DNA of 64,000 bases from positions 69,814 through 133,813 of the forward strand of contig CALVLD010000002.1 of assembly GCA_944336475.1 (NCBI GenBank), in the 5' to 3' direction. The notes beneath the pieces were generated by a model, which had not been told where the DNA came from, ran no database searches, and saw nothing but the letters and a program-made list of their open reading frames with translations. The translations under genes and the position numbers were made by a program. The DNA is from an uncultured Clostridia bacterium (GTDB lineage: Bacteria; Bacillota; Clostridia; Christensenellales; CAG-138). Positions 8,916-56,481 of the stretch are shown here, piece after piece (within the stretch, counting starts at the first letter, position 1; each line of letters begins with the position of its first letter).

Positions 8916-10385
8916 TTACTGCCTGTGAGCATTCGCAAGCTCGTTGAAGCTCATTATCAGCCTATCGATCTCACCTGCCTGATTGTGGATGTTCTTCCAA
9001 TAGTTGGGATCGTACCACTGTGCGTTGAGCTCGTCAACAGACTTGCCCTGCTGCTCGACCCAGGTGTAGTACTTAAGGTTGTGTACACGCTTGCGTGCCT
9101 GGTATGTAAGCTCTTCCATGCTGTCGGTACGAATGCCCTGCAGATGCAGTGCAAAGTCGGAAGCGGCGTCAATGAGGGTGTAATCGCCTTTCTGCTCGTT
9201 TAGCTCGGCAACACGGCTGGTATACATGGCTGCGGAATCGGTGCAGACGGTTGCGATGACATCATCCTCGGTGAGGTCATAGTACTTGGCAAACTTGATG
9301 CAGCAGAGCATATTGGCAATGCCGGAAATGCCCATGAGAGGGAGCTTATCGACCAGCTCAGGCTCAAGCCCTACAAACTCCACAAGATACTGACGGCCCT
9401 CGGGCGTATTGAACAGGCGGAGCAGGTTCTGGCTGTCATCGTCGTCGATGGCTATCACCATGTCGGTATTGCGCACATTGTGTACCCAAGGCACATGCTT
9501 GTCGCCAATGCCCTCTATGCGATGGCCGCCGAAGCCGTTCTCAAGCAGCGTGGGGCACTGAAGCGCCTCACCGACGGCGAGCTTGCTGTACGGATACTTC
9601 TCCTTAAGGTAGTCACCGCTGCCCATCGTACCTGCGCTGCCGCTTGTGAAGCAGGCGCCGGCAAAACGGCTGGTGGGGGTTTTTATGCTTTCGTAGACCT
9701 CCTCAATGGCGCTGCCGGTCACATGATAGTGCCAGAGATGATTGCCCATCTCCTCAAACTGATTGAATATTATAACATCGTTACGGGTACGGCGAAGCTC
9801 CCATGTCTTGTCGAATATCTCCTTGACGTTGCTCTCGCAGCCGGGGGTGGCGATAACCTCGCCGGCGATCCGGCTAAGCCACTCAAAGCGTTCGCGGCTC
9901 ATCTCCGCAGGGAGTATGGCAATGCTGTCGCAGGAGAGCAGCTTGGAGTTGTATGCACCGCCACGGCAGTAGTTGCCTGTGGACGGCCACACGGCCTTGT
10001 TGTAAGTCGGATCAAACTGGCCTGTAACAAGACGGGGAACCAGACAGCCGAAGCTGGCGCCGACCTTGTGACAGCCCGTGGGGAACCACTTGCCAACGAG
10101 GGCGACTATTCGGGCATGCACGCCGGTGAGCTTGGAGGGCAGCTCGATGTAGTTGACTCCGCCGTAGGTTCCGCCGAATTCCTTGGGCTCATTGTGCCAT
10201 GAAATGCGAAAAAGGTTATACGGATTGACGTCCCAAAGCCCGATGTGCGTCAGCTCATCCTTGACATATTGGGGGATCAGAGCAGGGTTTTTCATCTGGG
10301 CTATCGTGGGTATTACAATGCCGCGCTCCCTTGCGCGGATAATTGCTCTTTCGAGTTTTTCCCGGTTGATTGTGAGGTCTATCAT
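8916..10385 (-). CDS. PLP-dependent enzyme, tryptophan-synthase-beta-like fold (PALP family), long 489-aa form
   Basis: Lys-containing CHKVGASFG motif and glycine-rich phosphate loop TSGSAGTMGSG. Substrate not inferable from sequence. Confidence 0.6.
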   Translation of the reverse strand: MIDLTINREKLERAIIRARERGIVIPTIAQMKNPALIPQYVKDELTHIGLWDVNPYNLFRISWHNEPKEFGGTYGGVNYIELPSKLTGVHARIVALVGKWFPTGCHKVGASFGCLVPRLVTGQFDPTYNKAVWPSTGNYCRGGAYNSKLLSCDSIAILPAEMSRERFEWLSRIAGEVIATPGCESNVKEIFDKTWELRRTRNDVIIFNQFEEMGNHLWHYHVTGSAIEEVYESIKTPTSRFAGACFTSGSAGTMGSGDYLKEKYPYSKLAVGEALQCPTLLENGFGGHRIEGIGDKHVPWVHNVRNTDMVIAIDDDDSQNLLRLFNTPEGRQYLVEFVGLEPELVDKLPLMGISGIANMLCCIKFAKYYDLTEDDVIATVCTDSAAMYTSRVAELNEQKGDYTLIDAASDFALHLQGIRTDSMEELTYQARKRVHNLKYYTWVEQQGKSVDELNAQWYDPNYWKNIHNQAGEIDRLIMSFNELANAHRQ

Positions 10386-10477
10386 AGTTATTTTCCTTTC
10401 GGCAATTTATTCGCTCAAGTATATTTCATGGAATCTGAAAAGTAAAGCCCTTTTGAGTTTTTTTGCAATAAATATAC

Positions 10478-10506
10478 TTGTTTGAGGGGTATCGGTGATG
10501 TATAAT
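10478..10506 (+). promoter_or_regulatory. Sigma-A-type promoter for buk
   Basis: TTGTTT (10478-10483), 17-nt spacer, TATAAT (10501-10506). Confidence 0.6.
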
Positions 10507-10546
10507 TACACACCAGAATGATCATTACCCGAAAGGAGCGATAAAA

Positions 10547-11626
10547 GTGAAGAAAGACTACCGTGTGCTTGTCATCAATCCCGGCTCGACATCCACAAAG
10601 GTCGGCGTCTACGAGGGGGAGACGATGCTTTACGAGGGCGTTGTTCGCCACAGCCGTGATGAGCTGAGCCCCTATCCGACCATCATCTCCCAGAAGGATA
10701 TGCGCCTCGACCTTGTTAAGAAGCTCATCGAGGAGAACGGCTACACCCTTGACGAGATGGATGCATTCGTCGGCCGAGGAGGAATAATCCGTCCTCTGTT
10801 CCATGCCGGTGTGTATACGATAAACGACCGTCTTATTGACGATCTTATCAATCTGCCGAGCGCACAGCGCCATGCGTCCGCACTCGGAGGAATAATCGCA
10901 CGAGGTTTCGGCGATGCGTACGGCAAACCCTCCTTCGTGGTGGATCCTGTAACAGTGGATGAACGTGACGAGATCGCAAAGGTTACGGGTCTTCCCTTTG
11001 TACACAGGGAGTGCATATTCCACTGTCTTAATCAAAAGGCCGCCGCACGTCACTACTGCAAGCTGAACGGCAGGAGGTATGACGAGGTCAGCGTGGTGGT
11101 CGCCCACATGGGCGGAGGAATTTCCGTTGCTGCGCATAAGAACGGCAGGATAATCGACGTCACCGATACGATGTCGGGCGAAGGTCCGTTCACTCCCGAA
11201 CGCTGCGGTGCGATCTCCGCAAAGGCGGTTGCGGAGATGATATTTGATCAGGGCAAGACTCGTGCAGAGATAAACGGCTACATCGCCGGCAAGGGCGGCC
11301 TCATGGCGCACTTCGGCACCAACTCCGCGCTCGATGTCGAGCGTAAGGCAGAGGCAGGCGATGAGCATGCAAAGCTCATATACGACGCCATGGGCTACAC
11401 CATTGCAAAGGCCGTAGGAGAGATGGCAACGGTGCTGAGCGGTAAGGTTGACGCCGTGATACTCACGGGCGGCCTTGCGTACAGCAAGCCTCTCACCGAC
11501 TATATCTCCGAGCGTGTCGGCTTCATAGCACCCATAGAGTGTTATCCCGGCGAGGGCGAGCTCTCCGCACTGGCGGCAGGTGCGATCCGTGTACTCACGG
11601 GTGAGGAAGAGCCTAGGGAGTACTGA
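10547..11626 (+). CDS. buk: Butyrate kinase
   Basis: N-terminal VLVINPGSTSTKVGVYE acetate/butyrate-kinase signature, 359 aa. GTG start after AAAGGAG. Confidence 0.9.
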   Translation: MKKDYRVLVINPGSTSTKVGVYEGETMLYEGVVRHSRDELSPYPTIISQKDMRLDLVKKLIEENGYTLDEMDAFVGRGGIIRPLFHAGVYTINDRLIDDLINLPSAQRHASALGGIIARGFGDAYGKPSFVVDPVTVDERDEIAKVTGLPFVHRECIFHCLNQKAAARHYCKLNGRRYDEVSVVVAHMGGGISVAAHKNGRIIDVTDTMSGEGPFTPERCGAISAKAVAEMIFDQGKTRAEINGYIAGKGGLMAHFGTNSALDVERKAEAGDEHAKLIYDAMGYTIAKAVGEMATVLSGKVDAVILTGGLAYSKPLTDYISERVGFIAPIECYPGEGELSALAAGAIRVLTGEEEPREY

Positions 11627-11633
11627 TCAAAGC

Positions 11634-12257
11634 ATGTTTCTAATCGTCGGATTGGGCAATCCCGGCAGGGAGTATGCCAACACAAGGCACAATGCCGGCT
11701 TCATGACGCTTGACATACTTGCCGAAAGGCTCGGCATAGACATCCGCCGCAGAGGATTCCGCTGTGTTTACGGTGAGGGCAGAGTGGACGGAGAGCGCGT
11801 CGTGCTTGCAAAGCCGGAGACGTTTATGAATAACTCCGGCTACGCTGCGGTGGAGCTCATGAACTGGTACAAGGTTGAGCATAGCCGTCTGTTGGTCATA
11901 TATGACGACGCCGATATACCATGCGGCACCATACGCATCCGTGAAAAGGGCAGCTCAGGCACGCATAACGGCATGAGGAGCATAGTCGATCTGCTGGGGT
12001 TTGATGATTTCCCCCGCATAAGGGTAGGCATAGGCGCAGCCGACAGGTGCATGATAGGCCACGTTCTGGGCGACTTCACCGAAGACGAAAAGCCCGAGGC
12101 GGCAAAGGCCGTTGCCCAGGCTGCGGAGGCGGCGGAGCTCATAGTGCGAGGACGGATATCCGACGCACAGGCAAAGTTCAACCATCGAGGCGGCAAGCCA
12201 AAGCCAAAGCCTGCGGAGGCGCCTGTGCCGGATGGGACGGCTCGGGATGTGCAATAG
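11634..12257 (+). CDS. pth: Peptidyl-tRNA hydrolase
   Basis: MFLIVGLGNPGREYANTRHNAGF signature. The internal ATG at 11634 was chosen. C-terminal Lys/Pro-rich extension. Confidence 0.9.
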   Translation: MFLIVGLGNPGREYANTRHNAGFMTLDILAERLGIDIRRRGFRCVYGEGRVDGERVVLAKPETFMNNSGYAAVELMNWYKVEHSRLLVIYDDADIPCGTIRIREKGSSGTHNGMRSIVDLLGFDDFPRIRVGIGAADRCMIGHVLGDFTEDEKPEAAKAVAQAAEAAELIVRGRISDAQAKFNHRGGKPKPKPAEAPVPDGTARDVQ

Positions 12258-12282
12258 GTTCCATTCAATATGCAAATACAAA

Positions 12283-12312
12283 GCACGATGATTGCAGATG
12301 CAGTCATCGTGC
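12283..12312. terminator. Bidirectional hairpin terminator
   Basis: GCACGATGA (12283-12291) pairs with TCATCGTGC (12304-12312). T-rich tract on both strands. Lies between convergent pth and the anti-sigma gene. Confidence 0.75.
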
Positions 12313-12334
12313 CTGTTTTAATCACAGTCCACGG

Positions 12335-13087
12335 TCAGCTGAGCTGCTTCAGTATGTATGCCTCGATGTCGTCAAGGTCAAGAGCGTCCTGCGCTCCGGG
12401 GTAGGCATCTCGGCAAAATATCAGGCCCTGCTCGGTGGAGAGAAATGCCCAGCGCATACCATCGCCAAGTCCGCAGGGGGCTATGTCGCACAGTCTCAGA
12501 GTTGCGCCGTTCTGCTCCCAAACGGATGTTTCGCTATATACATTTGCCATGAATATGCCCTCCTCAGCCTTCCCGATATGGGAGATAACGCCGCTATCCT
12601 CAGTGTAAAGCCCAACCACATCCACTGCGCAGGGGAGGAGTATGGTGATCTGCTCGCCCGGGGCTATATCCCCACCGTATACCTCGTTCACGGATATGGA
12701 CGCAAGGCAGCGAAATGCCTTCTCACCGTTAAAATCGACTGTGATATTGGTAAGCCCGGCTATCCTGCCGCGGAAGATATACATATTCTCCCGAGAGAAC
12801 ATTTTCTCCTCCGTAAAATACCAGAGAAGATCGTGCGAAGAGCGGGCGACTGCTTCCGCATCACAGCCGAAGTACACTGTTGCGGTCGATGCTTCGGAAA
12901 GGGGAATGTCGCTTAACTGTGGGTCGCCTTGACGGAATAGCGCCAGTAAGGCAACGCCCGCTATGACGCACAGGCATGCCGCCGCAGCACAGATCTGCCA
13001 AACACGCCGCTTTCCCTTAGCTTCGGCTTCCAGAACATACTCGGGGTCGATCAGATCCATCTTATCCAAAAATTCGTCTCCTCTCAT
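12335..13087 (-). CDS. Putative anti-sigma factor (single-pass membrane protein)
   Basis: ATGA overlap with the upstream ECF sigma gene. One TM helix (VWQICAAAACLCVIAGVALLALF) after a short cytoplasmic N-terminus. Confidence 0.55.
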   Translation of the reverse strand: MRGDEFLDKMDLIDPEYVLEAEAKGKRRVWQICAAAACLCVIAGVALLALFRQGDPQLSDIPLSEASTATVYFGCDAEAVARSSHDLLWYFTEEKMFSRENMYIFRGRIAGLTNITVDFNGEKAFRCLASISVNEVYGGDIAPGEQITILLPCAVDVVGLYTEDSGVISHIGKAEEGIFMANVYSETSVWEQNGATLRLCDIAPCGLGDGMRWAFLSTEQGLIFCRDAYPGAQDALDLDDIEAYILKQLS

Positions 13088-13644
13088 ATGGTATGATCCT
13101 CCTTTTTAAGATGCTCCCGCAGCTTATTTCTGCAGCGGTAGAGCGTTGTTTTTACCTTGCTCTCGGACAGAGCAAAGCGTTTGGAAATGTCTGCGACGGA
13201 GTCGAGGTACCAATAGCTACGAACAAATATTCTGCGGCATTCGGGGGTCAATGATGCAAGAAAGCTGTTCATCATATCGGCAAAGGCCATGTCGTCCAAG
13301 CGGCATTGGCAGTCGTCCGGAACAGGTATGCACTGCTCCATCTCCGCGCTCAGCTCGCAGATGTGGACACTCCTCTTCAAACGACTGCTATCCCGACATC
13401 GGTTTAATGAAACGTTTCGGGTGATGCGTGCCAGGAAGGCATACAGATGATCCTTGGGGCTGTGAGGGGGTATGGCATTCCACGCCTTAACATAGGTGTC
13501 GTTTTCACATTCCTCGGCTGTCTGTGCATCCCTCACGATGCCGTATGACAGCCGCCTCAGACGTTTTCCGTACTTCTCGGAGGTGTGACGTAGCGCCGAT
13601 TCGTCTCTTGAGAGAAACAATTCTACTATATCCCCATCTTCCAT
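13084..13644 (-). CDS. ECF-type RNA polymerase sigma factor (sigma-70 family)
   Basis: Region 2 (DTYVKAW) and region 4 HTH (SVADISKRFALSESKVKTTLYRCRNKL). The second ATG (13644) is better spaced from the AAGGAG SD than ATG 13653. Confidence 0.8.
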   Translation of the reverse strand: MEDGDIVELFLSRDESALRHTSEKYGKRLRRLSYGIVRDAQTAEECENDTYVKAWNAIPPHSPKDHLYAFLARITRNVSLNRCRDSSRLKRSVHICELSAEMEQCIPVPDDCQCRLDDMAFADMMNSFLASLTPECRRIFVRSYWYLDSVADISKRFALSESKVKTTLYRCRNKLREHLKKEDHTI

Positions 13645-13785
13645 CGACTTCATCTCCTTTCCGGGGTTCTAAAAGGCCTTTCACCCATATAATCACCGTT
13701 TGCCGCAAAAGGGTTACAAGACATGGCGCAAAACATAAAAAAGAGGCGCAGATACTATCCGCACCTCAAGCGTTCCATATTCCAA

Positions 13786-14913
13786 TCACCACGGGCGTCT
13801 GCCCCAGGCGAAGTGTTGCCGCCAGTAATAGGAGCGGCACGTCCTCAAAACGACACAGCCGTGGTTTGCGGATGCGTCTATCATCATTCCGTTGCCGACA
13901 TATATGCCCACATGACCGATCCTCGAGTAGGAATTGTTGTAGAAGAACAGCAAATCGCCGATGTGAAGATTGTCGATATTGTTCAGCATCTCCCATTCGG
14001 TAACGGAGGCGTAGCCGGCGGCGTTATAGCGGCCGCGGTTGCTTCCTGCCTCACGCAGACAGTAGTACACAAGCCCGGAGCAGTCAAATGCATTAGGCCC
14101 ACATGCGCCCAGTATGTACGGCTTGCCGAGTTGAGCATATGCGCAGCTCACCATGCGCTGTATGTTAGCACGACTCGTCTCCTGCTGAACGACCCATGCG
14201 GCAGGAACGGCGGAGGGGGAGTAGAGCTTTTCAATGGTCAGTTCGCCCGCAAGCCCGTCTACCGCAAGCCCATTGCGGGACTGGAAATCACGAACCGCCT
14301 TCTTGGTGTATGAGCCGTAGAACCCGTCAACCTCTATCACATAATAGCCCAACATCTTGAGCTGCTCCTGGAGGTTTTTGACGTCTATGCCCGTGGTCCC
14401 CTCTTCCATGACATACTTTTCCGCCTTGTCGGAGAATAGCAGCGTCAGAGTTTTTTGACCGGCCATGCCGTCCATTGTAAGGTCATGCTGACGCTGGAAG
14501 AGCTGTATTGCGGTCGCAGTCGCACTACCGAAATACTGAGTGGGCTCGTCGATGTCGAGATAGCCAAGCTCCATCAGCCTGTCCTGTAATGAGCTGACAT
14601 AAGCGCTGTTCGTGCCCTGAATGAGCATGGGGTTCACCGTCACCTTCGGTGTGGGGGCAGGAGATGTGGTCACATACGGCGTTCCCGTGGGCAGCTCAGC
14701 GCCGTTCGGAGTCTCGGTCGCATATCTTATGGCAAAGACATCCTCGTCTGAATCGCGGCCGTTCGCATTCGGCAAAACGATAACAAGCGCAACACACGTT
14801 ACTACCGTTGCGGCAACGGCGGCAAGCACGATCTTTTCCTTCAACTTAAGGCGCTTGAGCCACGATACGGCGTCCCGCACCTTGGACTTAACAGTTTGCA
14901 GAGAGAATTTCAT
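13786..14913 (-). CDS. Membrane-anchored peptidoglycan hydrolase: PG_binding_1 repeats + NlpC/P60 domain
   Basis: PG-binding repeats (LQDRLMELGYLD..., LQEQLKMLGYY...). Catalytic FDCSGLVYYC and GHVGIYVG. ATG 14913 follows an AAGGAAGG SD. Confidence 0.85.
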   Translation of the reverse strand: MKFSLQTVKSKVRDAVSWLKRLKLKEKIVLAAVAATVVTCVALVIVLPNANGRDSDEDVFAIRYATETPNGAELPTGTPYVTTSPAPTPKVTVNPMLIQGTNSAYVSSLQDRLMELGYLDIDEPTQYFGSATATAIQLFQRQHDLTMDGMAGQKTLTLLFSDKAEKYVMEEGTTGIDVKNLQEQLKMLGYYVIEVDGFYGSYTKKAVRDFQSRNGLAVDGLAGELTIEKLYSPSAVPAAWVVQQETSRANIQRMVSCAYAQLGKPYILGACGPNAFDCSGLVYYCLREAGSNRGRYNAAGYASVTEWEMLNNIDNLHIGDLLFFYNNSYSRIGHVGIYVGNGMMIDASANHGCVVLRTCRSYYWRQHFAWGRRPW

Positions 14914-15120
14914 ACCAATCCGTCCTTCCTTAAACGCATTATACACCATACCGCCTAAGTTTTCAACACTTACAGCCATATTCGGGGTATTAAATGTGAA
15001 CAAACTGTTAAAAATGGTTTAAGCGGGGGTATTTTTCCGCTTCGTTCATAAATTGTTTGTTTGTATTGAACGACATCCATGGTATAATGCGTATGTAAGA
15101 TTACAGAGGGAGGTGACGAA

Positions 15121-16740
15121 TTGGACTCGTTTTTTAAGAAAATGCTTGCATGGATACGCTCTTTGAGGCTCGATCACGTTTTCAGACCCGTCTGGGAGCG
15201 TATCACTCGCACTGTCCTAAAGATCTTTGCATCGGTTAAAAAGCATTGGCTCCCGGTGTGCAGCGTTTCCGCCGCAGCCGTGGTCGCAGTCGTGCTGATA
15301 TGCGTGCTTTCCGCAGGGGATGACGACGGAGTTGTTGCGATAAGCGGTTCTCGCAATATCGCATCTGCAGGTCAGCCGACGACAACGCCTGTGCAGACAT
15401 TGACGCATACCCCCGTTCCGACGGAGATCCCTACGCCCACGCCCGAGCCCTTGCACCTCGGCTACGGAGACCAAAACGATATTGTGGCAGGTGTTCAGGA
15501 GCGGCTTATGGCGCTCAACTACATGGATTATGATGAGCCGACGGACTTTTACGGCAGCGCCACAAGCGAGGCAGTGCGCCTGTTTCAAAGGCGAAACGGC
15601 CTCGATACAACTGGTGAACTGGATCAGGCGGGTTACGACCTGCTTATGTCGGACTCGGCTCTTATATACATGGCGATGCTGGGCGATGAGGGCACGGACG
15701 TTATCGAGATGCAAACGCGGCTCTACGAGCTCGAGTATATCGATGCCATCACGGGCTATTTTGGCGAAAAGACCGAGGCGGCGGTAAAGCTCTTTCAGGA
15801 GAAGAACGGCCTGACCGTTGACGGCAAGGTAGGCCGTATAACCAAGGAGAAGCTCTACAGTGATGATGCCGTTCCTAATTCATTGCAATACGGCTCTAAG
15901 GGCGATGAGGTGCTGAAATACCAGAACAGGCTTTCAACGCTCGGCTACCTCACCACCGAGCCGGACGGCATATACGGCAACGATACGGTCATGGCGGTAA
16001 AACGTTTTCAAGAGCGCAATGCGCTTGTTGTAGACGGGTATCTCGGCCCCACTACAAAGCAGCTTTTGATGAGCGGTGATGCCAAGGCGAACAAGCTCGA
16101 ATACACCATGAGCGGCGATGACATCACACGAGTGCAATACAGGCTTCACGAGCTGAACTATCTCCATGCTTCGAGCGTGACGGGCTACTTCGGCGCTGTT
16201 ACGGATGCGGCGGTACGCATGTTCCAGTCAAACAACGGTCTGAGCGTTGACGGCAAGGTTGGGAAGGCCACCATGAAAAAGCTCTTCTCCGATGATCCCG
16301 TCCGTGCGGCAGCATATGTGACCCAAGGTACCCCCGGTCTGGGCGACGGCGAGGGCGGCAATATCGAAACATTCATTGCTATTGCGGAGTCAAAGCTCGG
16401 CGCACCCTATGTGCGTGGCGCAAAGGGGCCAAATGCATTCGACTGCTCAGGATTCGTATACTGGTGCCTCAACCAAGCAGGCGTGCATCAGAGTTATATG
16501 ACGACCTACATGTGGCGAACGACTAACCGCTATCCGCGCATACACTCCATGAGCGATCTTCGCAGGGGCGATATAATACTCTTCAAAATGGGCGATACGA
16601 CAGGTCACATAGGCATCGTGCTCGGCGACAACATGATGATAGACGCTTCCAACAACAGAGGACAGGTGGTCATCAGAAGCTATGACACCGCCTTCTGGCG
16701 CAGAACATTCTTCTGCGGATACCGTGTATTCGGAGGATAA
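15121..16740 (+). CDS. Membrane-anchored peptidoglycan hydrolase: >=4 PG_binding_1 repeats + NlpC/P60 domain
   Basis: Repeated LxxLxYL...G.xT..AV..FQ..NGL..DG modules. Catalytic FDCSGFVYWC and GHIGIVLG. TTG start 7 nt after GGGAGG. Confidence 0.85.
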   Translation: MDSFFKKMLAWIRSLRLDHVFRPVWERITRTVLKIFASVKKHWLPVCSVSAAAVVAVVLICVLSAGDDDGVVAISGSRNIASAGQPTTTPVQTLTHTPVPTEIPTPTPEPLHLGYGDQNDIVAGVQERLMALNYMDYDEPTDFYGSATSEAVRLFQRRNGLDTTGELDQAGYDLLMSDSALIYMAMLGDEGTDVIEMQTRLYELEYIDAITGYFGEKTEAAVKLFQEKNGLTVDGKVGRITKEKLYSDDAVPNSLQYGSKGDEVLKYQNRLSTLGYLTTEPDGIYGNDTVMAVKRFQERNALVVDGYLGPTTKQLLMSGDAKANKLEYTMSGDDITRVQYRLHELNYLHASSVTGYFGAVTDAAVRMFQSNNGLSVDGKVGKATMKKLFSDDPVRAAAYVTQGTPGLGDGEGGNIETFIAIAESKLGAPYVRGAKGPNAFDCSGFVYWCLNQAGVHQSYMTTYMWRTTNRYPRIHSMSDLRRGDIILFKMGDTTGHIGIVLGDNMMIDASNNRGQVVIRSYDTAFWRRTFFCGYRVFGG

Positions 16741-45657: not shown

Positions 45658-46458
45658 TCAGTTTGAGGGCACGGCACCCATGAGCAGTATAACATCCGCA
45701 GCATCCTTTGAGAGTGCATACTCAAGGAATGACTTTGCCGCATCGGAGAGGCTGTCGTCGCTGCGTGTCACGAGCACGAACGGTCTCTGGATTGGGTAAC
45801 TGCCGTCCTTTATGGTGGTTTCGCTCGGCAGAACGCCGTCAACGGAAACGGTCTTGACCGCATTGCTTACAGAGGCAACGGAGGCATAGCCAATGGCGTT
45901 CTCATTCATGGAGACCGTGGTGATGACATCACCGGTGGAGGTCAGCTGCTGGCGGTACTTGCACATATCTTCGGTACCGGTAACGCTCTCAAAGCCATCA
46001 CGGGTTCCACTGCCGGCCTCGCGGCCGATAAGGACTATCTCGGAGTCTGCACCTCCGACATCACTCCAGTTGGTGATCTTTCCGGTGAATATGTCGGCTA
46101 TCTGTTCTGTAGAGAGCGAAGTCACAGGATTGTTGTTGTTAACAATGATCGCAATGCCATCGTAAGCGAGCACGGTTTCCGTCAGACCAAGCTCCTTTTC
46201 GGAATCCTTAAGAGCTCTGCTGGAGAGACCGATGTCGCAGCGGCCCTCTGCAACTGCGGTAATGCCGCCGCTGGAACCTGTTGCATTGTAGGTGACCTCG
46301 AGATCGGGGTTGGAGTCGTGGAAAGCCTCGCCAAGGCCGCCTATGACCTTCTCCATAGAGGTGGAGCCCTCGGTGGTTACCTTTGCGCCTCTGGCACAAC
46401 CTGTGAGCATCATTGCAGCCACGAGAGCCGCAGCAGTTAACATGATTATCTTTTTCAT
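45658..46458 (-). CDS. pstS: Phosphate-binding lipoprotein PstS
   Basis: Lipobox LTGC. GSTSMEKV...TGSSGG...GSGTR phosphate-binding motifs. Confidence 0.9.
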   Translation of the reverse strand: MKKIIMLTAAALVAAMMLTGCARGAKVTTEGSTSMEKVIGGLGEAFHDSNPDLEVTYNATGSSGGITAVAEGRCDIGLSSRALKDSEKELGLTETVLAYDGIAIIVNNNNPVTSLSTEQIADIFTGKITNWSDVGGADSEIVLIGREAGSGTRDGFESVTGTEDMCKYRQQLTSTGDVITTVSMNENAIGYASVASVSNAVKTVSVDGVLPSETTIKDGSYPIQRPFVLVTRSDDSLSDAAKSFLEYALSKDAADVILLMGAVPSN

Positions 46459-46544: not shown

Positions 46545-46689
46545 ACTATCCAAAGACAAAAGGCAGCGGGGAGCATGCTACACATTCTGTCGGTGACACT
46601 GATATCGCCAGAGATAGCTGCCGCAAAAAGGATGGTCAAACGGAAAAACCGTGCTCGACACCCTCGATTCGTTTGAGGATATAACGGCA

Positions 46690-47377
46690 TTATCTCCTCA
46701 ATGCGCAGAACGTTGTCGTTTCGCTTATTGACATCAGCGGCAATACCATGGTATAATATATCAACGACAGTTGGGGCAAGCTGATTGCCGCAACGGGCAC
46801 CTTGGCAAACACGGTCGGGCTTAACAACCCGTTCCGTTATAGGGGTATGTCTACGATACCGAAACGGGTTGGTACTACCTCCGGTCCCGTTACTATAACC
46901 CCGAGCTCTGCCGCTTCGTCTCCGCGGACGTCTACCTCTCCACCGGCCAGGGTGTGCTGGGGCACAACGCCTTTGTATACTGCCTGAATGATCCGGTGAA
47001 CATGACTGATGAAGGTGGACATTGGCCGAGTTGGGCAACTAAGCTTGTCGCAGCGGCAGTTGTCGTTGCCGTTGTCGGAGTTGTGGCAGCTGTTGCTGCT
47101 GCAACAGCTGGTGCAGGAACTGCGGCGGCTGTTATTGCCGTAGGAGCGCCAAAGGAGCTGCTATTGGAATGGCTTCAGGAGCTTCAATTGGCGCTGTGAC
47201 AGGGGCAGTAAGTCATAGAGCATCCACTGGCAGCCGGAGCGGAGCGGGCACAGCCGCACTTAATGGGATGGGTGTCGGGGCCTGTCAGGTGCCGTCACCG
47301 GTGCAATATCATGGGCTGTACTGCTGACGACCGCAATAGTGTTCATCGCCAAATGCTGCTGGATGGCTGGCAAATGA
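46690..47377 (+). pseudogene. Decayed orphan RHS C-terminal cassette (RHS-core tail + glycine-zipper/TM-rich toxin tip)
   Basis: Reads ...YLLNAQNVVVSLIDISGNTMV*YINDSWGKLIAATGTLANTVGLNNPFRYRG. An in-frame TAA lies at 46751-46753. The coding sense then moves through three further frames, shifting at 46842-46845, ~47145 and 47277-47280. Confidence 0.7.
46769..46969 (+). repeat. Copy 1 of the ~200-bp near-identical RHS-core junction repeat
   Basis: Aligns to 50551-50750 with only about six differences, one of them a 1-nt G-run indel. Sequences diverge completely downstream. Confidence 0.85.
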
Positions 47378-47510: not shown

Positions 47511-47539
47511 TTGACGGCCTACAACGAGCATGGTATACT
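47511..47539 (+). promoter_or_regulatory. Strong sigma-A promoter with extended -10
   Basis: TTGACG (47511-47516), 17-nt spacer, TGgTATACT (-10 at 47534-47539). About 220 nt upstream of the amidase gene. Confidence 0.7.
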
Positions 47540-47760
47540 GCTTTTGCTTGGGGGTTAAGGCGGACAGACTCATGAAGTGTTGGCTGCAGCTATGTGTGTT
47601 GAGAAGCTGAGTGATGAAGCGCACATTGCCCATCGCTCACAAGGGCTCTTATCGGCAAGAGCGCAGTCACACATGGGGCGCTCGTCTGTCGTTTGCGACC
47701 CGATGCATCTACTCATCTTCCAAACATTGAAAATTTATTAAAATGTTAGGGAGGCAGATA

Positions 47761-49050
47761 ATGAAGAAAGCAAAACTGGCCATATCGATTCTTTGTGCGT
47801 GTATGTTTTTATTTCAGGGGATAACAGCCGCTCCGAATGTGAACGCTGCAACCCTGGGAGTTCACTCAAAAATTGAAAGCGTTATTGAGCAATATATTTC
47901 GTCGAAATATCACTTGATTTCGCAATTATCGGTATCTGCAAAAGGGATTGAGATGGACACTGAGTGTGTGTCAGAAAAGGCTATCAGCTTTAGACAGATA
48001 GAGAGGGCGATTCTTTCCTCATATGTGAGCTTGATGCTGTCATGTAAGAACAGTCCACGCTTCTCTATAAAAGACTTGGACTGCTCATACAGATACGCTA
48101 CCTTATGCGGCACATCTGCCGATGTATATGTGAGTGTAAGATGTAAATTCAACTATGATATTACTCCCGACGTAAATTCGGAAACGGGCGAGATATTACG
48201 CATCTATTTACATAACTCGGGCACTGGTTGGGAGATTACCGGCAGGGATTATATATCCGACTTTGACAGAGCGTTTTGGGGGTGTAAGGAGCCAACCGTT
48301 GATAATGCCTTGCGTAGAGAGCAGGAAATTTATGCAATTGCAAACAGTCTTGCTGAGCGTAAAAGTATTACTACCGAATTCTATGATGAGTGGGAGTGCG
48401 GTGATGCGGACGGTAACGATCTTGAAACTCGCTCCGTGGCAACGTATAATGCATCAGGGGCAGTGGGATGGGCGTTAGCTAACGTTGCACCGATATCGAG
48501 CACATGGAATGATGCAGGTGGATATTCTTATTCCTATCCATCGCCATATTCACAGTTCTACCATGACTGTACCAACTATGTATCGGTATGTATGAATCTC
48601 GGAGGTGACATACCATTTGATACTACCGCTTATCCCTATAACAACGGAGGTGATGTATGGTTTTATAACAGCCCCAACACTGCCGGCGCCACATACAGCT
48701 TCTCGTGGGCGACAGTCGGAAGTCTTGGCCTTTATCTTGAAGGTGGAGCGACAGCATCAGATGGGATATACAGTATAAAGGCTTATCAAAATTCGTCCTA
48801 TCCGTCTACACTTACCAATTCAACCATCCGAGCTGGAGATATTGTTCAGTTTTATGACGGCAGTATCGGGTCATGGAATCACTCGGCAATTATTACATAC
48901 TACAAGCCTGTCTTGGACATTGCATATATTTGCCAGCATGATGCCAACCAGTATATGAGCCAATGCTCGTTGGAAGGGTACTATACCGCAGTGTATGCTT
49001 CATCGGGATCGTTAATACGTTTCTTCGATGTTCGCGGATATTATAATTAA
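47761..49050 (+). CDS. Secreted protein with C-terminal putative amidase domain (Amidase_6 / papain-like)
   Basis: Signal peptide (...GITAAPNVNA). YNASGAVGWA...FYHDCTNYVSVCMNLGG...GDIVQFYDGSIGSWNHSAIITYY matches the Cys/His amidase_6 pattern. ATG 47761 follows GGGAGG. Confidence 0.8.
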   Translation: MKKAKLAISILCACMFLFQGITAAPNVNAATLGVHSKIESVIEQYISSKYHLISQLSVSAKGIEMDTECVSEKAISFRQIERAILSSYVSLMLSCKNSPRFSIKDLDCSYRYATLCGTSADVYVSVRCKFNYDITPDVNSETGEILRIYLHNSGTGWEITGRDYISDFDRAFWGCKEPTVDNALRREQEIYAIANSLAERKSITTEFYDEWECGDADGNDLETRSVATYNASGAVGWALANVAPISSTWNDAGGYSYSYPSPYSQFYHDCTNYVSVCMNLGGDIPFDTTAYPYNNGGDVWFYNSPNTAGATYSFSWATVGSLGLYLEGGATASDGIYSIKAYQNSSYPSTLTNSTIRAGDIVQFYDGSIGSWNHSAIITYYKPVLDIAYICQHDANQYMSQCSLEGYYTAVYASSGSLIRFFDVRGYYN

Positions 49051-49066
49051 ACCATAGGAGGTAAAA

Positions 49067-50458
49067 ATGAAGTTTAAGCGAATGCTGCCGATAACGGCAC
49101 TCCTGTTGTGCGCAGTGATGCTGATGGGTCTGTTGTGTGCCTGTGAGCCAACAGACCCCGTCATATCTGAAACCACCGCCACACCGGATGATACCGATGT
49201 GCCGGATGCCAATGGCATTGACGACCCCTCCTCTGTGTCCGACGATGGCATATCGCCTGTCGAAGGCATCGAAAACGCCATGATCGACTCGGGTGCAGGC
49301 AACTCCTATGCATACATATCCCCCGATGGGGTGCTGTACACATGGGGATGCAACGATGGTGCTGGCCTCGGCACGGGCAGTGTGTATGACGAATATGCGC
49401 CCGTAGAAGTTGCAAGGGATGTCCGCTGGGCTGACTTTGCCGTATATGGCAATGATGTCGGCCGGAAATACACCATGCTGCTCTATATAACCGATGACGG
49501 TCAGCTATGTGCATCGGGCTGCCTCCCGGTTGATCTCTTTAAGGAGGATCCCAATCTGCTCGGAAGCTGTTACTCGCTGTTCCTCGGGGACGAGGCGGTA
49601 GAACTTGTTTCGATAGGCGAGGACTCAGCTCTATTCGTATACACCGATGCGGGCAACATATTATACTATGATCATCTCTACAACAACTATATGTTCCACA
49701 TCCCTGAGGCCACCGAGGGGAATCCCTATCCCTCCACAAGGCAGTATCTCAATGATACTCGGCTGAACGGCAAGGTTCGTGAGATCTCTGCCGGCAGCTT
49801 CATCACCGCTTTTGTCACGACCGACGACGAGCTCTATCTCTTCGACATGAACTCGCAGGAGCTCATGTATGTCTGTGACGGTGTTGCCTCGGCACATGTG
49901 TGCGGTACGATACCGAATGTGGTCGTGCTGAAGCAGGACGGATCCCTCTACATACAGAGGTGCTATGACCCTGCCGCAGGGGCTTTTGCGGATGACTTTA
50001 ATCTCGATACCGCAGCCCCCGTGCTTGAGAACGTCACTGCACTCGACTTTGATCTCAACTCCATCGCCGCGCTCAATGCGGACGGCTCAGCTGCGCTGTT
50101 TGTGGGTGCAGTCAGCGATACACCGGATGTCAACGGGCATTATTGTGACTTCATGGCGGCTCACCTTCCCACGGTGAACGATGCCGCAATGGTGTTTGCG
50201 GATGCCGGCGGCGGTGCAGGCGTCATATACATCAACCATGACGGCGATGCCTACTATCTGCCTGTCGACGGCGAAGCCGAGTTCATAACCTCCGATGCTG
50301 CATACGCCCATTTCATCAATGGCGGTGTCGGTGCTTTTGTGATACGTCTCGATGGCAGCGTTGTCACCCATACTCGCACCGGCTGTGAGCACCGCTTCCT
50401 CGGTCTGGGCTACGGCGTGTATACCGCTCCGGAGTGTACTCAGCTCGTGTTTGAGTGA
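49067..50458 (+). CDS. Lipoprotein with RCC1-like / beta-propeller repeats
   Basis: Lipobox LLCAC. One clear RCC1 motif (DGVLYTWGCNDGAGLGTG) and about six further hydrophobic-xx-DG-x-hydrophobic blade-like repeats. Confidence 0.6.
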   Translation: MKFKRMLPITALLLCAVMLMGLLCACEPTDPVISETTATPDDTDVPDANGIDDPSSVSDDGISPVEGIENAMIDSGAGNSYAYISPDGVLYTWGCNDGAGLGTGSVYDEYAPVEVARDVRWADFAVYGNDVGRKYTMLLYITDDGQLCASGCLPVDLFKEDPNLLGSCYSLFLGDEAVELVSIGEDSALFVYTDAGNILYYDHLYNNYMFHIPEATEGNPYPSTRQYLNDTRLNGKVREISAGSFITAFVTTDDELYLFDMNSQELMYVCDGVASAHVCGTIPNVVVLKQDGSLYIQRCYDPAAGAFADDFNLDTAAPVLENVTALDFDLNSIAALNADGSAALFVGAVSDTPDVNGHYCDFMAAHLPTVNDAAMVFADAGGGAGVIYINHDGDAYYLPVDGEAEFITSDAAYAHFINGGVGAFVIRLDGSVVTHTRTGCEHRFLGLGYGVYTAPECTQLVFE

Positions 50459-50471
50459 TCGTTGTCTTGTG

Positions 50472-50499
50472 AGGGGGCGCTTTGCAAAAAGCGTCCCCT
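50472..50499 (+). other. 12-bp hairpin without U-tract, overlapping the start of the orphan RHS ORF
   Basis: AGGGGGCGCTTT / AAAGCGTCCCCT with a GCAA loop. It contains a GAGG-like motif and the TTG at 50482. Confidence 0.6.
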
Positions 50500-51360
50500 G
50501 CTTATGTAATTGACAGCACGGGCGCAGCCGTGGTATCATATATCTATGATAGTTGGGGCAAGCTGATTGCCGCAACGGGCACCTTGGCAAACACAGTCGG
50601 GCTTAACAACCCGTTCCGTTGTAGGGGGTATGTCTACGATACCGAAACGGGTTGGTACTACCTCCAGTCCCGTTACTATAACCCCGAGCTCTGCCGCTTC
50701 GTCTCCGCAGACGTCTACCTCTCCACCGGCCAGGGGGTGCTGGGGCACAATGCATTTGCGTATTGTAGGAGTAATCCCACAAACAGAATCGATGCTTCCG
50801 GCTTTTATGATGATGAACTCGATATATATAATTTAATCCGGAGCAATACAAGAGCGGCAGCAAGAACTAAAAAGCTTTTATTCTGGGGTTCTTGCCTTAT
50901 TGGTATTCACTTTAGTGTGTTCATTCCCAGCAGTATGACGATTTCTGCTGGAAGTGCAGTTGCTATAAAATATGCAGTATTTTATGAGAATGTGAAGGCA
51001 GGCGGGCCTATGGATTATAAAAATAGAGAGAGATGGGAAGCCGCTTTGCCAAACCTTCCCTATCCCGGCGATAGCGGAGAGGAGGAGATTTATCAATTCT
51101 ATGGAGAGCTGCGGAGCGCATCAGACATAGGAAATATAAACTACGGTGCCGTGGGCGCTGCGTTAGGCATCCCTTTGGAGATACTCCTGTGGCAAGCAGG
51201 CGCAGCACAGCTAAGGGACCATTACGGATATAGCATGTTTGACTCGCAATACCATTCATTTCTGGCTGGTCCGGATTCCTGTTATGGAGATCAAGAGGAC
51301 GACTACGAAAGTATAGTGCTTGGTTACAATCTATATATGGAAGGATATTTTGGAGGGTAG
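50482..51360 (+). CDS. Orphan RHS C-terminal cassette: RHS-core tail + Ntox44-like toxin domain
   Basis: YIYDSWGKLIAATG...NPFRCRGYVYDTETGWYYLQSRYYNPELCRFVSAD...NAFAYCRSNPTNRIDASGF is the end of an RHS core. The tip carries PMDYK, GNINYGAVGAALGIP, LLWQAGAAQ and YGDQEDDYESIVLGY motifs. No RHS body lies upstream. Confidence 0.75.
   Translation: MQKASPAYVIDSTGAAVVSYIYDSWGKLIAATGTLANTVGLNNPFRCRGYVYDTETGWYYLQSRYYNPELCRFVSADVYLSTGQGVLGHNAFAYCRSNPTNRIDASGFYDDELDIYNLIRSNTRAAARTKKLLFWGSCLIGIHFSVFIPSSMTISAGSAVAIKYAVFYENVKAGGPMDYKNRERWEAALPNLPYPGDSGEEEIYQFYGELRSASDIGNINYGAVGAALGIPLEILLWQAGAAQLRDHYGYSMFDSQYHSFLAGPDSCYGDQEDDYESIVLGYNLYMEGYFGG
50551..50750 (+). repeat. Copy 2 of the ~200-bp near-identical RHS-core junction repeat
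   Basis: See copy 1 (46769-46969). Confidence 0.85.
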
Positions 51361-51363
51361 TGT

Positions 51364-51885
51364 ATGATTTGTATGATTTGTCGGCGGATAATCGCAGTTT
51401 TAGTTGTTGTTTTATTCATTGTTCTATGCGGATGCACGGATCTTCTGTCAGATAACAGAATCATCCCACTTGATGAGGTTGCAACCCCTTCTGCAGAAGA
51501 ATTAACCGCATTGTATAATGCGAACAAAGATGCCTTCTTATCGGCAGCAAATGCCGTGTTGGGAAGTGAGCCTTTACGCAAACAAATTGAGGATAGAGAC
51601 ATTAGATACTTCTGTATTGCTTGTTGGGCTCACAAAGAGTTTTTTACGGAAGAGGCCTGGTATTATGTTACGGCAATATTTGGAATTGCCCACCTACACC
51701 GTATCACTCGATATATATCCGGTGCTGTATGTTTTGAATTTCTCACAAACCCAGAGACAAATACCACAGCTTATCTGTACTATTTTCCGGAGCCATCGGA
51801 CAGGTTTATTGATTTATATTTGGATATAGCATATACGATAAGCTACCATTCTATCAATGACAATTGGTGGATCAGGGTAACCTAA
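51364..51885 (+). CDS. Putative cognate immunity lipoprotein
   Basis: Starts 4 nt after the toxin stop and has its own GGAGGG SD. Lipobox LCGC. 173 aa with no recognisable family. Immunity role inferred from position. Confidence 0.55.
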   Translation: MICMICRRIIAVLVVVLFIVLCGCTDLLSDNRIIPLDEVATPSAEELTALYNANKDAFLSAANAVLGSEPLRKQIEDRDIRYFCIACWAHKEFFTEEAWYYVTAIFGIAHLHRITRYISGAVCFEFLTNPETNTTAYLYYFPEPSDRFIDLYLDIAYTISYHSINDNWWIRVT

Positions 51886-52034: not shown

Positions 52035-52068
52035 TATAAAAAGCCCTGCGAAAAAACTCATCGCAGGG
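52035..52068 (-). terminator. Intrinsic terminator of the cotJ operon
   Basis: CCCTGCGA / TCGCAGGG stem, followed on the minus strand by CTTTTTAT. Confidence 0.7.
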
Positions 52069-53929: not shown

Positions 53930-54898
53930 ATGCAGGTGAACGCCATAGTCAATGCGGCAAACTCCGCACTGGTTCAGGGCGGAGGCGTGTGCGGTGCGAT
54001 ATTTGCAGCCGCCGGTGCGGCAGAGCTTCAGGCAGCCTGTAACAGGGTCGCTCCCGTGAGCACCGGTTATGCCGCCATCACGCCTGGCTTTAGGCTTGCG
54101 GCAAAATACATTATCCATGCGGTAGGCCCCGTTTATCGCAACCATACCCCAGAGCGGAGCGAGAGGTTGCTGCGTTCCGCATACACGCAATCCCTTCTGC
54201 TTGCACTGGATCATGGGTGTTCAAGCATTGCGTTTCCCTTGATATCAAGCGGCATATACGGTTACCCCAAGTCTGAAGCATTGCAGGTCGCAACCTGCGC
54301 CGTTAGGGATTTCCTCGAGCAATATGACATGGATGTCTACCTTGCTGTATTTGACAAGGCTTCCCTTGCGGTGAGCCGTGAGCTGCTGGGCAGTGTAAAG
54401 AGCTACATATATGACCACTATGTCGATACACACACGTTTGCGAGGGAAGACTATCACATTGCAGAGCGCAGTGGGAATATGCCCTTTTCCAATGCGGTCG
54501 GATCTGATAAATGCAAGAGCGATCGAATCTCATTGACCGAAGCCATAGGCAATTTGGACGAACCGTTCGGCACAACGCTGCTTCGCATTATAGACTCAAA
54601 GGGCATGACCGATGTCGAGGTATACAAAAGGGCCAATATGGATCGCAAGCTGTTCTCAAAGATCCGAACCGGCAAGTGGTATATGCCGAGCAAGAGAACG
54701 GTGCTGGCACTTGCAGTCGCATTGGAGCTTGACCTTAACGAAACAGAACGGCTGCTCAAAAAGGCCGGGTATGCCATCTCCCATAGTCGGAAGTCTGACG
54801 TTATCGTTGAATACTTCATAATTAACGGAAGATATGATGTTTTCGAGATAAACGAGGTGCTTTTCGAATATGATCAGCCTCTGCTCGGAATGAATTGA
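53930..54898 (+). CDS. Macro-domain protein (ADP-ribose binding/hydrolase) fused to a C-terminal HTH-like domain
   Basis: NAIVNAANSALVQGGGVCGAI and SSGIYGYP macro motifs. Coordinates start at the first ATG, but homology and the SD indicate the true start lies upstream near 53894 (see findings). Confidence 0.8.
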   Translation: MQVNAIVNAANSALVQGGGVCGAIFAAAGAAELQAACNRVAPVSTGYAAITPGFRLAAKYIIHAVGPVYRNHTPERSERLLRSAYTQSLLLALDHGCSSIAFPLISSGIYGYPKSEALQVATCAVRDFLEQYDMDVYLAVFDKASLAVSRELLGSVKSYIYDHYVDTHTFAREDYHIAERSGNMPFSNAVGSDKCKSDRISLTEAIGNLDEPFGTTLLRIIDSKGMTDVEVYKRANMDRKLFSKIRTGKWYMPSKRTVLALAVALELDLNETERLLKKAGYAISHSRKSDVIVEYFIINGRYDVFEINEVLFEYDQPLLGMN

Positions 54899-54979
54899 AT
54901 AATGTCGCCTTAAAAGCGACCCGTTGTGAGCGCCTCCTGTGTATTATTGTTCCATACTAAAAACAGGAGGACGCACAAA

Positions 54980-55630
54980 ATGAAAAAGAACTTGACCGAG
55001 CTGGCGTTTATTCTCGACAGAAGCGGCTCCATGGCAGGACTGGAGAGGGATACCATAGACGGATTCAACTCCATGCTGACAAGGCAGAGGGCGCTTGATG
55101 GCGAGTGCATCATCACAACGGTGCTCTTTGATAAGCGTTACGAGCTGCTCCACGGCCGTATTGATATCCGTGCCGTCAGCCCGCTGACCGAGGCAGACTA
55201 TTGCGTTGGCGGATGCACTGCCCTCGTAGATGCAATAGGGTGCATGATCAACAAGATCTAAGCCGTTCAAAAAAATACAGCCGTGGATTACCGTGCGGAG
55301 AATGTTATGTTCGTCATAATAACCGACGGTGAGGAGAATGCCAGCCGTGAGTACTCCTTGGGGCAGGTGCGCAGCATGGTAGAACAGCATAAGGAAAAGG
55401 ACGGCTGGGAGTTCATCTTCCTTGGGGCGAACATCAATGCCGTTACCGCAGCACGGAGCTTCGGGATACATGCCGATCGTGCCTTGGATTATGTGCCGGA
55501 TGGTGTGGGTATCGCACTTAACTTTACGGTGATGAGTGGTGCCATTGAGCAAATGCGCAGCAATAATCGTTTCGATCCACAGACCCTTGATACAATAAGG
55601 AACGATACAAATAAAAGTGGAAGGAAATGA
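54980..55630 (+). pseudogene. vWA (von Willebrand A) domain gene interrupted by an in-frame TAA
   Basis: MIDAS DRSGSM in the first part and TDGEEN in the second. Both parts share one frame and are separated only by the TAA at 55259-55261. Confidence 0.75.
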
Positions 55631-56481
55631 CAGGAGCAATAGTAGGGGACATAGTGGGCTCCGTGTACGAATGGAACAACATCAAGACCAAGGAGTTTCC
55701 GCTCTTTAGGCAGGATTGTTTCTTTACGGACGATACGGTCATGACGTGTGCCGTGGCGGAGGCGATCATGCGAGGCGGCGAGAGGGGCGACTTCATCAAC
55801 GCCATGAAGGTATACGGCAGGATGTATCCCGATGCAGGGTACGGCGGAAGGTTTGGAACATGGCTGTTTTCCAACAGCACGGAGCCGTATAACAGCTTTG
55901 GCAACGGCTCTGCCATGAGGGTGTCGCCGTGCGCATGGGTGATGAACTGCGGATTCTTGGCGAGGACGGGGATGTGGCCGGTCAATGGGCAGAATCTTGC
56001 AAGACTGTCTGCGGAGGTAACGCATAACCACCCCGAGGGCATAAAGGGGGCGTTGGCGGTTGCGGATGCCATATTCCTCTGCCGCTACTATTTCGGCGGC
56101 TGCTCCGGAGACGATAAAAATCCCATTTCAAATGATCACGATGAGTGCAAGCGGCGTATAAAAGCCCACATAGAGCAGCAGTACGGCTATGATCTCTCAA
56201 GGGCGCTTGACGAGATAAGGCCCACATACCGATTCAACGAGACCTGTCAGGATACGGTGCCGCAGGCGATTGTTGCCTTCCTTGACAGCACCGGTTTTGA
56301 GGATGCCATACGCAACGCAATTTCCCTCGGCGGAGACAGCGATACTCTTGCCGCCATAACGGGAGGCATGGCGGAGGCGGCATATGGCATACCTAAACAT
56401 ATATCCGACAAGGCGCTCAGCTATCTGGACGACACCCTGATCGATGTCGTCGACAGGTGGCAAAAGTTTATCCGCAAGTGA
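55627..56481 (+). CDS. ADP-ribosylglycohydrolase family protein
   Basis: GAIVGDIVGSVYEW...FTDDTVMT...GGDSDTLAAITGGMAEA motifs. ATGA overlap with the vWA gene. Confidence 0.85.
   Translation: MTGAIVGDIVGSVYEWNNIKTKEFPLFRQDCFFTDDTVMTCAVAEAIMRGGERGDFINAMKVYGRMYPDAGYGGRFGTWLFSNSTEPYNSFGNGSAMRVSPCAWVMNCGFLARTGMWPVNGQNLARLSAEVTHNHPEGIKGALAVADAIFLCRYYFGGCSGDDKNPISNDHDECKRRIKAHIEQQYGYDLSRALDEIRPTYRFNETCQDTVPQAIVAFLDSTGFEDAIRNAISLGGDSDTLAAITGGMAEAAYGIPKHISDKALSYLDDTLIDVVDRWQKFIRK

Follow-up and report, generated by a model that had tools for sequence, protein, structure and literature searches.

Why is an intact toxin tip kept, together with a neighbouring lipoprotein gene, at a locus where the large Rhs protein expected to carry it is missing? 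The question is raised by a short region of a 64,000-nucleotide stretch of contig CALVLD010000002.1, from an uncultured Clostridia bacterium; the whole of this 64 kb stretch, indicated as the window, was examined. The region 50473-51885 is a genuine orphan Rhs-CT (Ntox44)/immunity module, an element of a known kind, and is referred to as cassette B, to distinguish it from a decayed sibling, cassette A, located upstream. It likely combines a toxin that cannot be delivered with an embedded promoter, from which an exported immunity lipoprotein is expressed. The features of the module are the following:

50472..50499, plus strand: 12-bp hairpin, 13 nt past the stop of the gene for an RCC1-repeat lipoprotein, containing GAGGGGG and TTG 50482.

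50473..51360, plus strand: open frame of cassette B, 295 codons from the preceding stop and 292 from the TTG, made up of the end of an Rhs core and an Ntox44 tip.

50510..50539, plus strand: putative embedded sigma-A-type promoter, TTGACA-18-TATCAT, scoring 11/12, TG-extended (TGgTATCAT).

50545..50802, plus strand: Rhs-associated core domain, TIGR03696, residues 25-110.

50980..51339, plus strand: Ntox44 toxin domain, PF15607, residues 170-289.

51350..51355, plus strand: ribosome-binding site GGAGGG, 8 nt before the ATG of the next gene, within the last codons of the toxin frame.

51364..51885, plus strand: candidate immunity lipoprotein of 173 amino acids, with a signal peptide and the lipobox VLCGC (Cys24), belonging to an uncurated family.

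The open frame spans 50473-51357, with the stop codon at 51358-51360, and its first start-type codon is TTG 50482. In the original prediction, based on the sequence alone, it had been described as beginning with the last ~100 residues of an Rhs core, without any YD-repeat shell: both parts of the description stand. The NCBIfam model TIGR03696 matches residues 25-110 with E 1.4e-18 and 67 bits (cut-off 32.5); the core domain ends with ...NPTNRIDASGF, the equivalent of the PxxxxDPxGL motif, and the profile of alignment A3, composed mostly of related cassettes, matches the core ends of solved Rhs/Tc structures. At the amino acid level, the core stub is up to 92% identical to the core ends of other cassettes, at least 60% identical across the close clade, and 69% identical to a full-length-type gene in L029 (L numbers indicate the loci and contigs used for comparison). 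Its nearest kin come from Oscillospiraceae, Christensenellaceae and other Clostridia metagenome-assembled genomes, of rumen and gut. A YD-repeat shell (more than 1000 residues) and an N-terminal export or anchoring region are both missing: no large Rhs open reading frame is present in the window, where the longest frames encode 901 (an FtsX permease) and 876 amino acids, and an Rhs core-end query matches the window at the two cassettes only. The frame stays open for just 25 codons upstream of the core anchor. The toxin subtype of cassette B is found, in L009, two genes after an Rhs gene of at least 507 amino acids, cut at the contig end.

The Ntox44 domain is described in the literature by the motifs DxK, GNxxxG and DxxxD, by an all-alpha fold and by a grouping with predicted RNases (Zhang et al. 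2012, PMC3482391). The tip of cassette B, originally assigned to polymorphic-toxin type 44 by its motifs, is recognized by PF15607 with 57.8 bits (gathering score 24) and E 1.5e-15, over profile positions 2-103 of 104. All the motifs are present: DxK (D181, K183), GNxxxG (G220, N221, G225) and DxxxD (D273, D277), and their residues are invariant in alignment A1, where the tip is compared with 14 relatives. AF2 predicts for the tip a helical structure, apart from one small hairpin (predicted local distance difference test score, pLDDT, 88.9). The tip is thus like the family described by Zhang et al. (PMC3482391) in profile match, predicted all-alpha fold, the three motifs and fusion to Rhs.

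The gene that follows, at 51364-51885, does feature the GGAGGG ribosome-binding site and the lipobox first noticed in it: the lipobox, MICMICRRIIAVLVVVLFIVLCG-C with the cysteine at position 24, passes a PROSITE-style, PS51257-like pattern. The statement that it matches no known family is correct for the curated libraries, since no hit was obtained from Pfam, NCBIfam or PADLOC, but not overall: a word-indexed protein search returned the lipoprotein itself and no relatives, and a full HMMER search identified 32 representatives of an uncurated family. In L009, L010 and L012 the toxin is directly followed by a homologue (25–31% identity, alignment A2), with a pairwise E of 1e-18 for L009. When 10 further metagenome loci are included, a family member is found directly after a close-type Ntox44 cassette in 14 of the 14 loci where the downstream gene is visible. 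By this linkage the gene proposed as a cognate immunity candidate gains support, and its product is very probably the cognate immunity protein. The suggestion that it occupies the classic position of an immunity gene is less well matched, since the corresponding setting, downstream of a full-length rhs, is not found within the window. In L026, a homologue (8941-9489) is kept without a toxin; in the same array, a RelB/RelE-like pair lies immediately upstream of this toxin-less homologue. A different arrangement is observed in L098 (1179-2321), where two tandem immunity paralogues follow a single Ntox44 tip.

Export is a constant trait of the family. An N-terminal signal or anchor segment is present in 29 of the 29 aligned members: the strict lipobox pattern is satisfied in 16, while the rest carry a near-lipobox or an anchor. 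No significant Pfam hit was found for these 29 members (one marginal match to DUF3877, E 0.0068), nor did the family profile hit any PDB sequence. Pfam-verified Ntox44 tips of other subtypes (L083, L053, L108) are likewise followed by a protein with an N-terminal hydrophobic signal or anchor, and the same holds for remote Ntox44-like tips (L102-L107). A profile-profile comparison of the immunity family with the lipoproteins found beside distant Ntox44-like tips reached only 64% probability, over the N-terminus alone. No immunity family is given for Ntox44 by Zhang et al. (PMC3482391); in the loci compared here, all the partners that can be seen are exported.

The promoter-like site is located at the very beginning of the core stub: TTGACA are the first six bases of Rhs homology, 11 nt past the hairpin, and the hexamers coincide with codons for I-D...V-x-Y. 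Sites scoring 11/12 or better are 11 in the window, against about 0.85 expected by a rough calculation; several of the others, judged by their coordinates, lie just upstream of long open reading frames. The conservation of the hexamers was evaluated at synonymous sites, in 33 unique core ends sharing at least 60% identity. The test is not circular, because the sequences were chosen at the amino acid level only. Third codon positions within the hexamers are fixed: the I/L/V codon ends in T in 33 of 33 sequences, Asp is encoded by GAC in 33 of 33, Val by GTA in 32 of 33, and the next codon (E, Q, S or stop) ends in A in 33 of 33. For equally conserved neighbouring residues (D-2, D16, Y15, G7, G19, V10), third positions are near saturation, with entropies of 0.9–1.9 bits. 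A promoter score of at least 10/12 is found in 32 of 36 close-clade sequences (of these 36, 30 can be shown to be orphans); in more distant Rhs genes the mean is about 6/12. The site is present both in orphans and in full-length-type genes (L029 and L009:769). Taken at the sequence level, these data suggest that, in this clade, rhs genes would carry a functional sigma-A-type promoter in their constant 3' end.

Two further observations concern the same site in other loci. At ~11900-11960 of L053 (L053:11945) the core-end frame is destroyed (TIVDVYYM*LLKF), and TTGACG-18-TAAAAT is still present, with its usual spacing to the YDAWGK codons, a retention consistent with selection acting on the promoter, not on the protein. 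In three cassettes of one rumen metagenome-assembled genome (L026 4255-4330, 5770-5830 and ~7090), the core frame is broken by an insertion immediately past the embedded -10 box: a hairpin of 11 perfectly paired bp, CACCAAGCGGG-GCTGCT-CCCGCTTGGTG.

A TTG and a GAGG-like motif had been reported to lie inside a 12-bp hairpin, and so they do: the hairpin at 50472-50499 closes a GCAA loop with 12 pairs, one of them G-U, at a predicted energy of -21.1 kcal/mol, and its 5' arm holds TTG 50482-84 and GAGGGGG 50471-77. TTG 50482 is not, as had been supposed, the only in-frame start: 14 ATG, GTG or TTG codons are in frame, of which the TTG is merely the first, and the sole one upstream of the Rhs-derived part. 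The hairpin is not scored by a terminator scan, T being present in only 4 of the 8 tail bases, and it resembles about 16 other window hairpins of at least 11 bp, several of them just past gene ends; it is the probable terminator of the upstream Amidase_6/RCC1 operon. The junction was analyzed by aligning the core ends matched in 78 loci, 107 in all. In this alignment, the Rhs homology of cassette B begins exactly at 50510, and 50473-50509, TTG included, is unrelated flank. Two cassettes from a different organism (L006:10073 and L006:14187) share an identical stretch of 42 nt from 50510, preceded by unrelated sequence. Because homology starts at 50510 and the L006 cassettes have unrelated upstream sequence, the "start codon in a hairpin" is an accident of the stub abutting the terminator of its neighbour. 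The two L006 cassettes, cut at the same TTGACA boundary as cassette B, bear different tips; they belong to an array of several orphan Rhs-CT cassettes (10001-16542), with no full-length rhs within 10 kb upstream.

Since the promoter lies past the TTG, the transcript of cassette B, probably starting near 50546, would not include TTG 50482. The cassette had been taken as silent and poorly translated: lack of toxin translation is probably right, while silence is not, as the cassette is probably transcribed from the embedded promoter to the benefit of the immunity gene.

A second copy of the core end, cassette A (46682-47350), is located 3.8 kb upstream of cassette B:

46682..47011, plus strand: core-end remnant of cassette A, interrupted in frame by TAA 46754-46756 and lacking 1 nt of a G run near 46843.

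46728..46757, plus strand: promoter-like site of cassette A, TTGACA-18-TATAAT, scoring 12/12, with TG before the -10 box, at the homologous position.

47012..47350, plus strand: toxin-tip remnant of cassette A, frameshifted, Gly/Ala-rich and hydrophobic, with broken open reading frames at 46954-47199 and 47169-47327.

Cassette A forms with 50509-50794 a direct repeat, 88% identical over about 285 nt of core, and translates as RHYLLNAQNVVVSLIDISGNTMV*YINDSWGK. Its promoter-like site is one of three 12/12 sites in the window, the TAA stop being part of the -10 hexamer; the site may now drive the downstream Amidase_6/RCC1 operon. No significant Pfam hit was found for the tip of cassette A.

Taken together, the data likely describe a module whose two halves have different fates. 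The toxin half consists of the core stub and an intact tip; because it lacks a shell, an export or anchoring region and a credible ribosome entry site, the toxin would be undeliverable and is probably not made. The core stub, placed directly past the terminator-like hairpin of the upstream operon, would act as a promoter carrier, and not just as a recombination arm. From the sequence and the comparative data, a transcript starting at ~50546 would traverse the untranslated toxin frame, the lipoprotein gene then being translated from its own GGAGGG: this would be the sole well-equipped translation start on such a transcript. The lipoprotein, on the outer face of the membrane, would protect against neighbours deploying the same Ntox44 subtype on a complete Rhs, and the intact tip would stay available for recombination into a full-length rhs elsewhere.

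A number of points weigh against this reading. No full-length rhs was found within the ~50 kb upstream and 12 kb downstream, an exact DNA scan of GTDB species genomes with the shared core sequence, in search of a parent rhs, gave 0 hits, and an exact scan of JGI metagenomes with a 31-nt promoter segment also gave 0 hits. Both the promoter and the transcription start are inferred from sequence; the core ends used in the synonymous-site test are mutually related, so that the counts derived from them are only partly independent. The immunity gene would be preceded by an unusually long untranslated leader, of about 820 nt. Neutralization of the toxin by the lipoprotein is predicted, and AF2 modelling of the immunity protein from its single sequence gave no usable structure (pLDDT 46.6). 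Lastly, the literature labels Ntox44 as a predicted RNase, and one paper places it among characterised nuclease domains, without details.

Other explanations may be weighed against the same evidence. The locus might be a decaying relic without current function, a fragment stranded too recently to have collected disabling mutations, its promoter-like site being an inherited by-product of the parental coding sequence. Cassette A, already broken by a stop and by frameshifts only 3.8 kb away, the absence of a parent rhs from the 64 kb, and the identity of the five sampled assemblies, which leaves no population signal of selection, fit with this idea; yet the immunity family is kept beside the toxin subtype in 14 of 14 loci, and once alone, the hexamers are invariant at synonymous sites while their neighbours are saturated, and they outlast the loss of the frame, both in cassette A and in L053:11945, as a coding by-product would not. 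A relic is accordingly considered unlikely. The conserved embedded promoter, the intact 295-codon frame with every family-invariant residue, and the precedent of Salmonella Rhs-CT (PMC7043789) would also agree with an internally expressed toxin–antitoxin-like module, where a truncated core-plus-tip protein is made at a weak internal start, works within the producing cell and is restrained by the immunity protein. Such a module is quite unlikely: the immunity protein, exported in every locus, could not meet a cytoplasmic toxin, no in-frame start past ~50546 features a well-spaced ribosome-binding site, and no start codon conserved in the clade is seen there by eye. A 116-amino acid "gene" (P0121, ATG 51010) was considered as evidence for an internal start and rejected, as it derives from Logan contigs cut at 50715.

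Translation from TTG 50482, by read-through from the Amidase_6/RCC1 operon and melting of the hairpin, would generate a 292-amino acid product. GAGGGGG is found 4 nt before the TTG, the hairpin, devoid of a strong U tract, may allow termination to leak, and both NCBI and ENA pipelines call the 292-amino acid frame; this origin is nonetheless very unlikely, as a stem of -21 kcal/mol sequesters both ribosome-binding site and start, the initial ~10 codons belong to unrelated flank and not to Rhs, and the product, having neither signal peptide nor shell, could not reach its target. Finally, a complete rhs could continue upstream of 50510 and be hidden by a mis-join, a case which the original prediction had itself raised by mentioning an Rhs shell in a corrected assembly. 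Repeats of this kind are prone to mis-assembly, and Logan contigs from three independent samples (L002, L003, L004) all end at window position 50715, within the repeated core sequence. An artefact is however highly improbable: an independent 134-kb ENA contig shows the same junction (0 differences over 20.5 kb), four contigs from other samples differ from the region by at most one position, the 292-amino acid protein, annotated in NCBI and ENA records, is present on 10 contigs of up to 187 kb, and the Logan breaks occur because of a 42-nt exact repeat common to cassettes A and B. The breaks at 50715 also show how core repeats fragment short-read assemblies, giving rise to spurious short "genes", such as P0121.

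The export of the immunity protein bears on the target of the toxin as well. Given its exported partner, the toxin is most likely to attack the cell envelope, rather than to be a cytoplasmic RNase. An extracytoplasmic enzymatic target is favoured, with moderate confidence, and, with its invariant D-x-K, D and DxxxD residues, the toxin might be a metal-dependent hydrolase. As for the fold, a Foldseek search of the toxin model against PDB and BFVD gave a best E of 0.46, with TM-scores not above 0.41, and a profile search of the toxin alignment against PDB sequences retrieved Rhs core ends only, with no solved nuclease: at variance with the predicted RNase label, the model fits no solved nuclease fold. 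A weak local resemblance to pore helices of K+ channels was dismissed as generic helix hairpins.

The module is contained in a 5.5-kb island, flanked by the divergently oriented pst operon (pstS 45658-46458) and cotJC/B/A (from 52089); cotJC/B/A lies beside the island, and therefore the host is a spore-forming Firmicute. Nothing was returned for the island by PADLOC, Rfam or tRNA scans. Between the two cassettes a single operon is found:

47743-50458, between the cassettes: two-gene operon encoding a secreted Amidase_6 (PF12671) protein and the RCC1-repeat lipoprotein (49067-50458).

The Amidase_6/RCC1 pair could be an independent cell-wall hydrolase with its partner protein; an additional promoter-like site is present at 47511-47539. 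On the other side, a GC-rich hairpin of 8 bp (52044-52068) lies between the immunity gene and the convergent cotJC; featuring a good T run on the minus strand only, it is probably the cotJ terminator, and possibly shared by both genes. Just past cotJ, the region 53930-56481 encodes a Macro-domain protein with a C-terminal extension, two open reading frames of 93 and 107 amino acids, not assigned to a family and with no Pfam hit on record, and an ADP-ribosylglycohydrolase. From its Macro and glycohydrolase genes, this region may serve in the reversal of ADP-ribosylation or in defence.

Orphan rhs-CT/rhsI modules of Enterobacteria were reportedly described in earlier work by Koskiniemi/Hayes. 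In Salmonella Typhimurium, internal promoters have been experimentally mapped in the conserved region of both main and orphan rhs, and the internal transcript bears the CTG at which Rhs-CT translation starts, the product behaving as part of a type II toxin–antitoxin module (Starsta et al. 2020, PMC7043789). Cassette B is similar to the Salmonella orphans in being a shell-less fragment, composed of a conserved core stretch, a variable tip and an adjacent immunity gene, and in featuring a core-internal promoter for tip and immunity gene, independent of the main rhs promoter and here deduced from sequence. It differs in its host, a monoderm Clostridia with no type VI secretion system, and in the lack of an adjacent full-length rhs. 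The distance from the promoter to the PxxxxDPxGL equivalent is about 230 nt here and 89 nt in Salmonella, and the two promoters are not homologous. The immunity protein, moreover, is here an exported lipoprotein, so that an intracellular role of the toxin–antitoxin type is unlikely.

In Bacillus subtilis, the full-length, contact-dependent toxin WapA carries tRNase tips, neutralized by the cytoplasmic WapI. WapA/WapI and cassette B share the condition of Firmicute polymorphic toxins of the Rhs family, in which the C-terminal tip varies and the immunity gene lies downstream; in cassette B, in contrast, only a tip fragment is left and the partner is a lipoprotein. TelC of Streptococcus intermedius, a lipid II phosphatase delivered by a type VII secretion system, is counteracted by TipC, a surface-anchored immunity protein. 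The analogy with TelC/TipC is functional only, as it consists of an interbacterial toxin acting outside the membrane and an anchored extracellular immunity protein, with no kinship in sequence or fold and with a different delivery.

A wider proposal, which is put forward tentatively, extends these observations to the family and to the clade: Ntox44 would not be an RNase, but a toxin with a previously unseen all-alpha fold, acting outside the cytoplasmic membrane or on the cell wall and neutralized there by uncurated immunity lipoproteins; in addition, a synonymous-site promoter in the 3' end of the rhs genes of the clade would guarantee the expression of immunity for any cassette recombined in, which would explain why orphans are trimmed to, and not past, the -35 box.

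The details that are new in this module are the promoter hidden in the coding stub and an exported immunity family at odds with the RNase label. Orphan Rhs cassettes are usually seen as silent spare parts; here, sequence-level evidence indicates that the stub may serve as a promoter module for the immunity gene. This locus, with some 30 core ends related to it, offers a parallel, in Gram-positive Clostridia of gut and rumen, to what experiments had shown only in Salmonella. The lipoproteins are the first candidate immunity family for Ntox44 and, given their consistent export, the "RNase" annotation of Ntox44, widely copied and in use for metagenomic effector profiling, is probably wrong for at least this branch.

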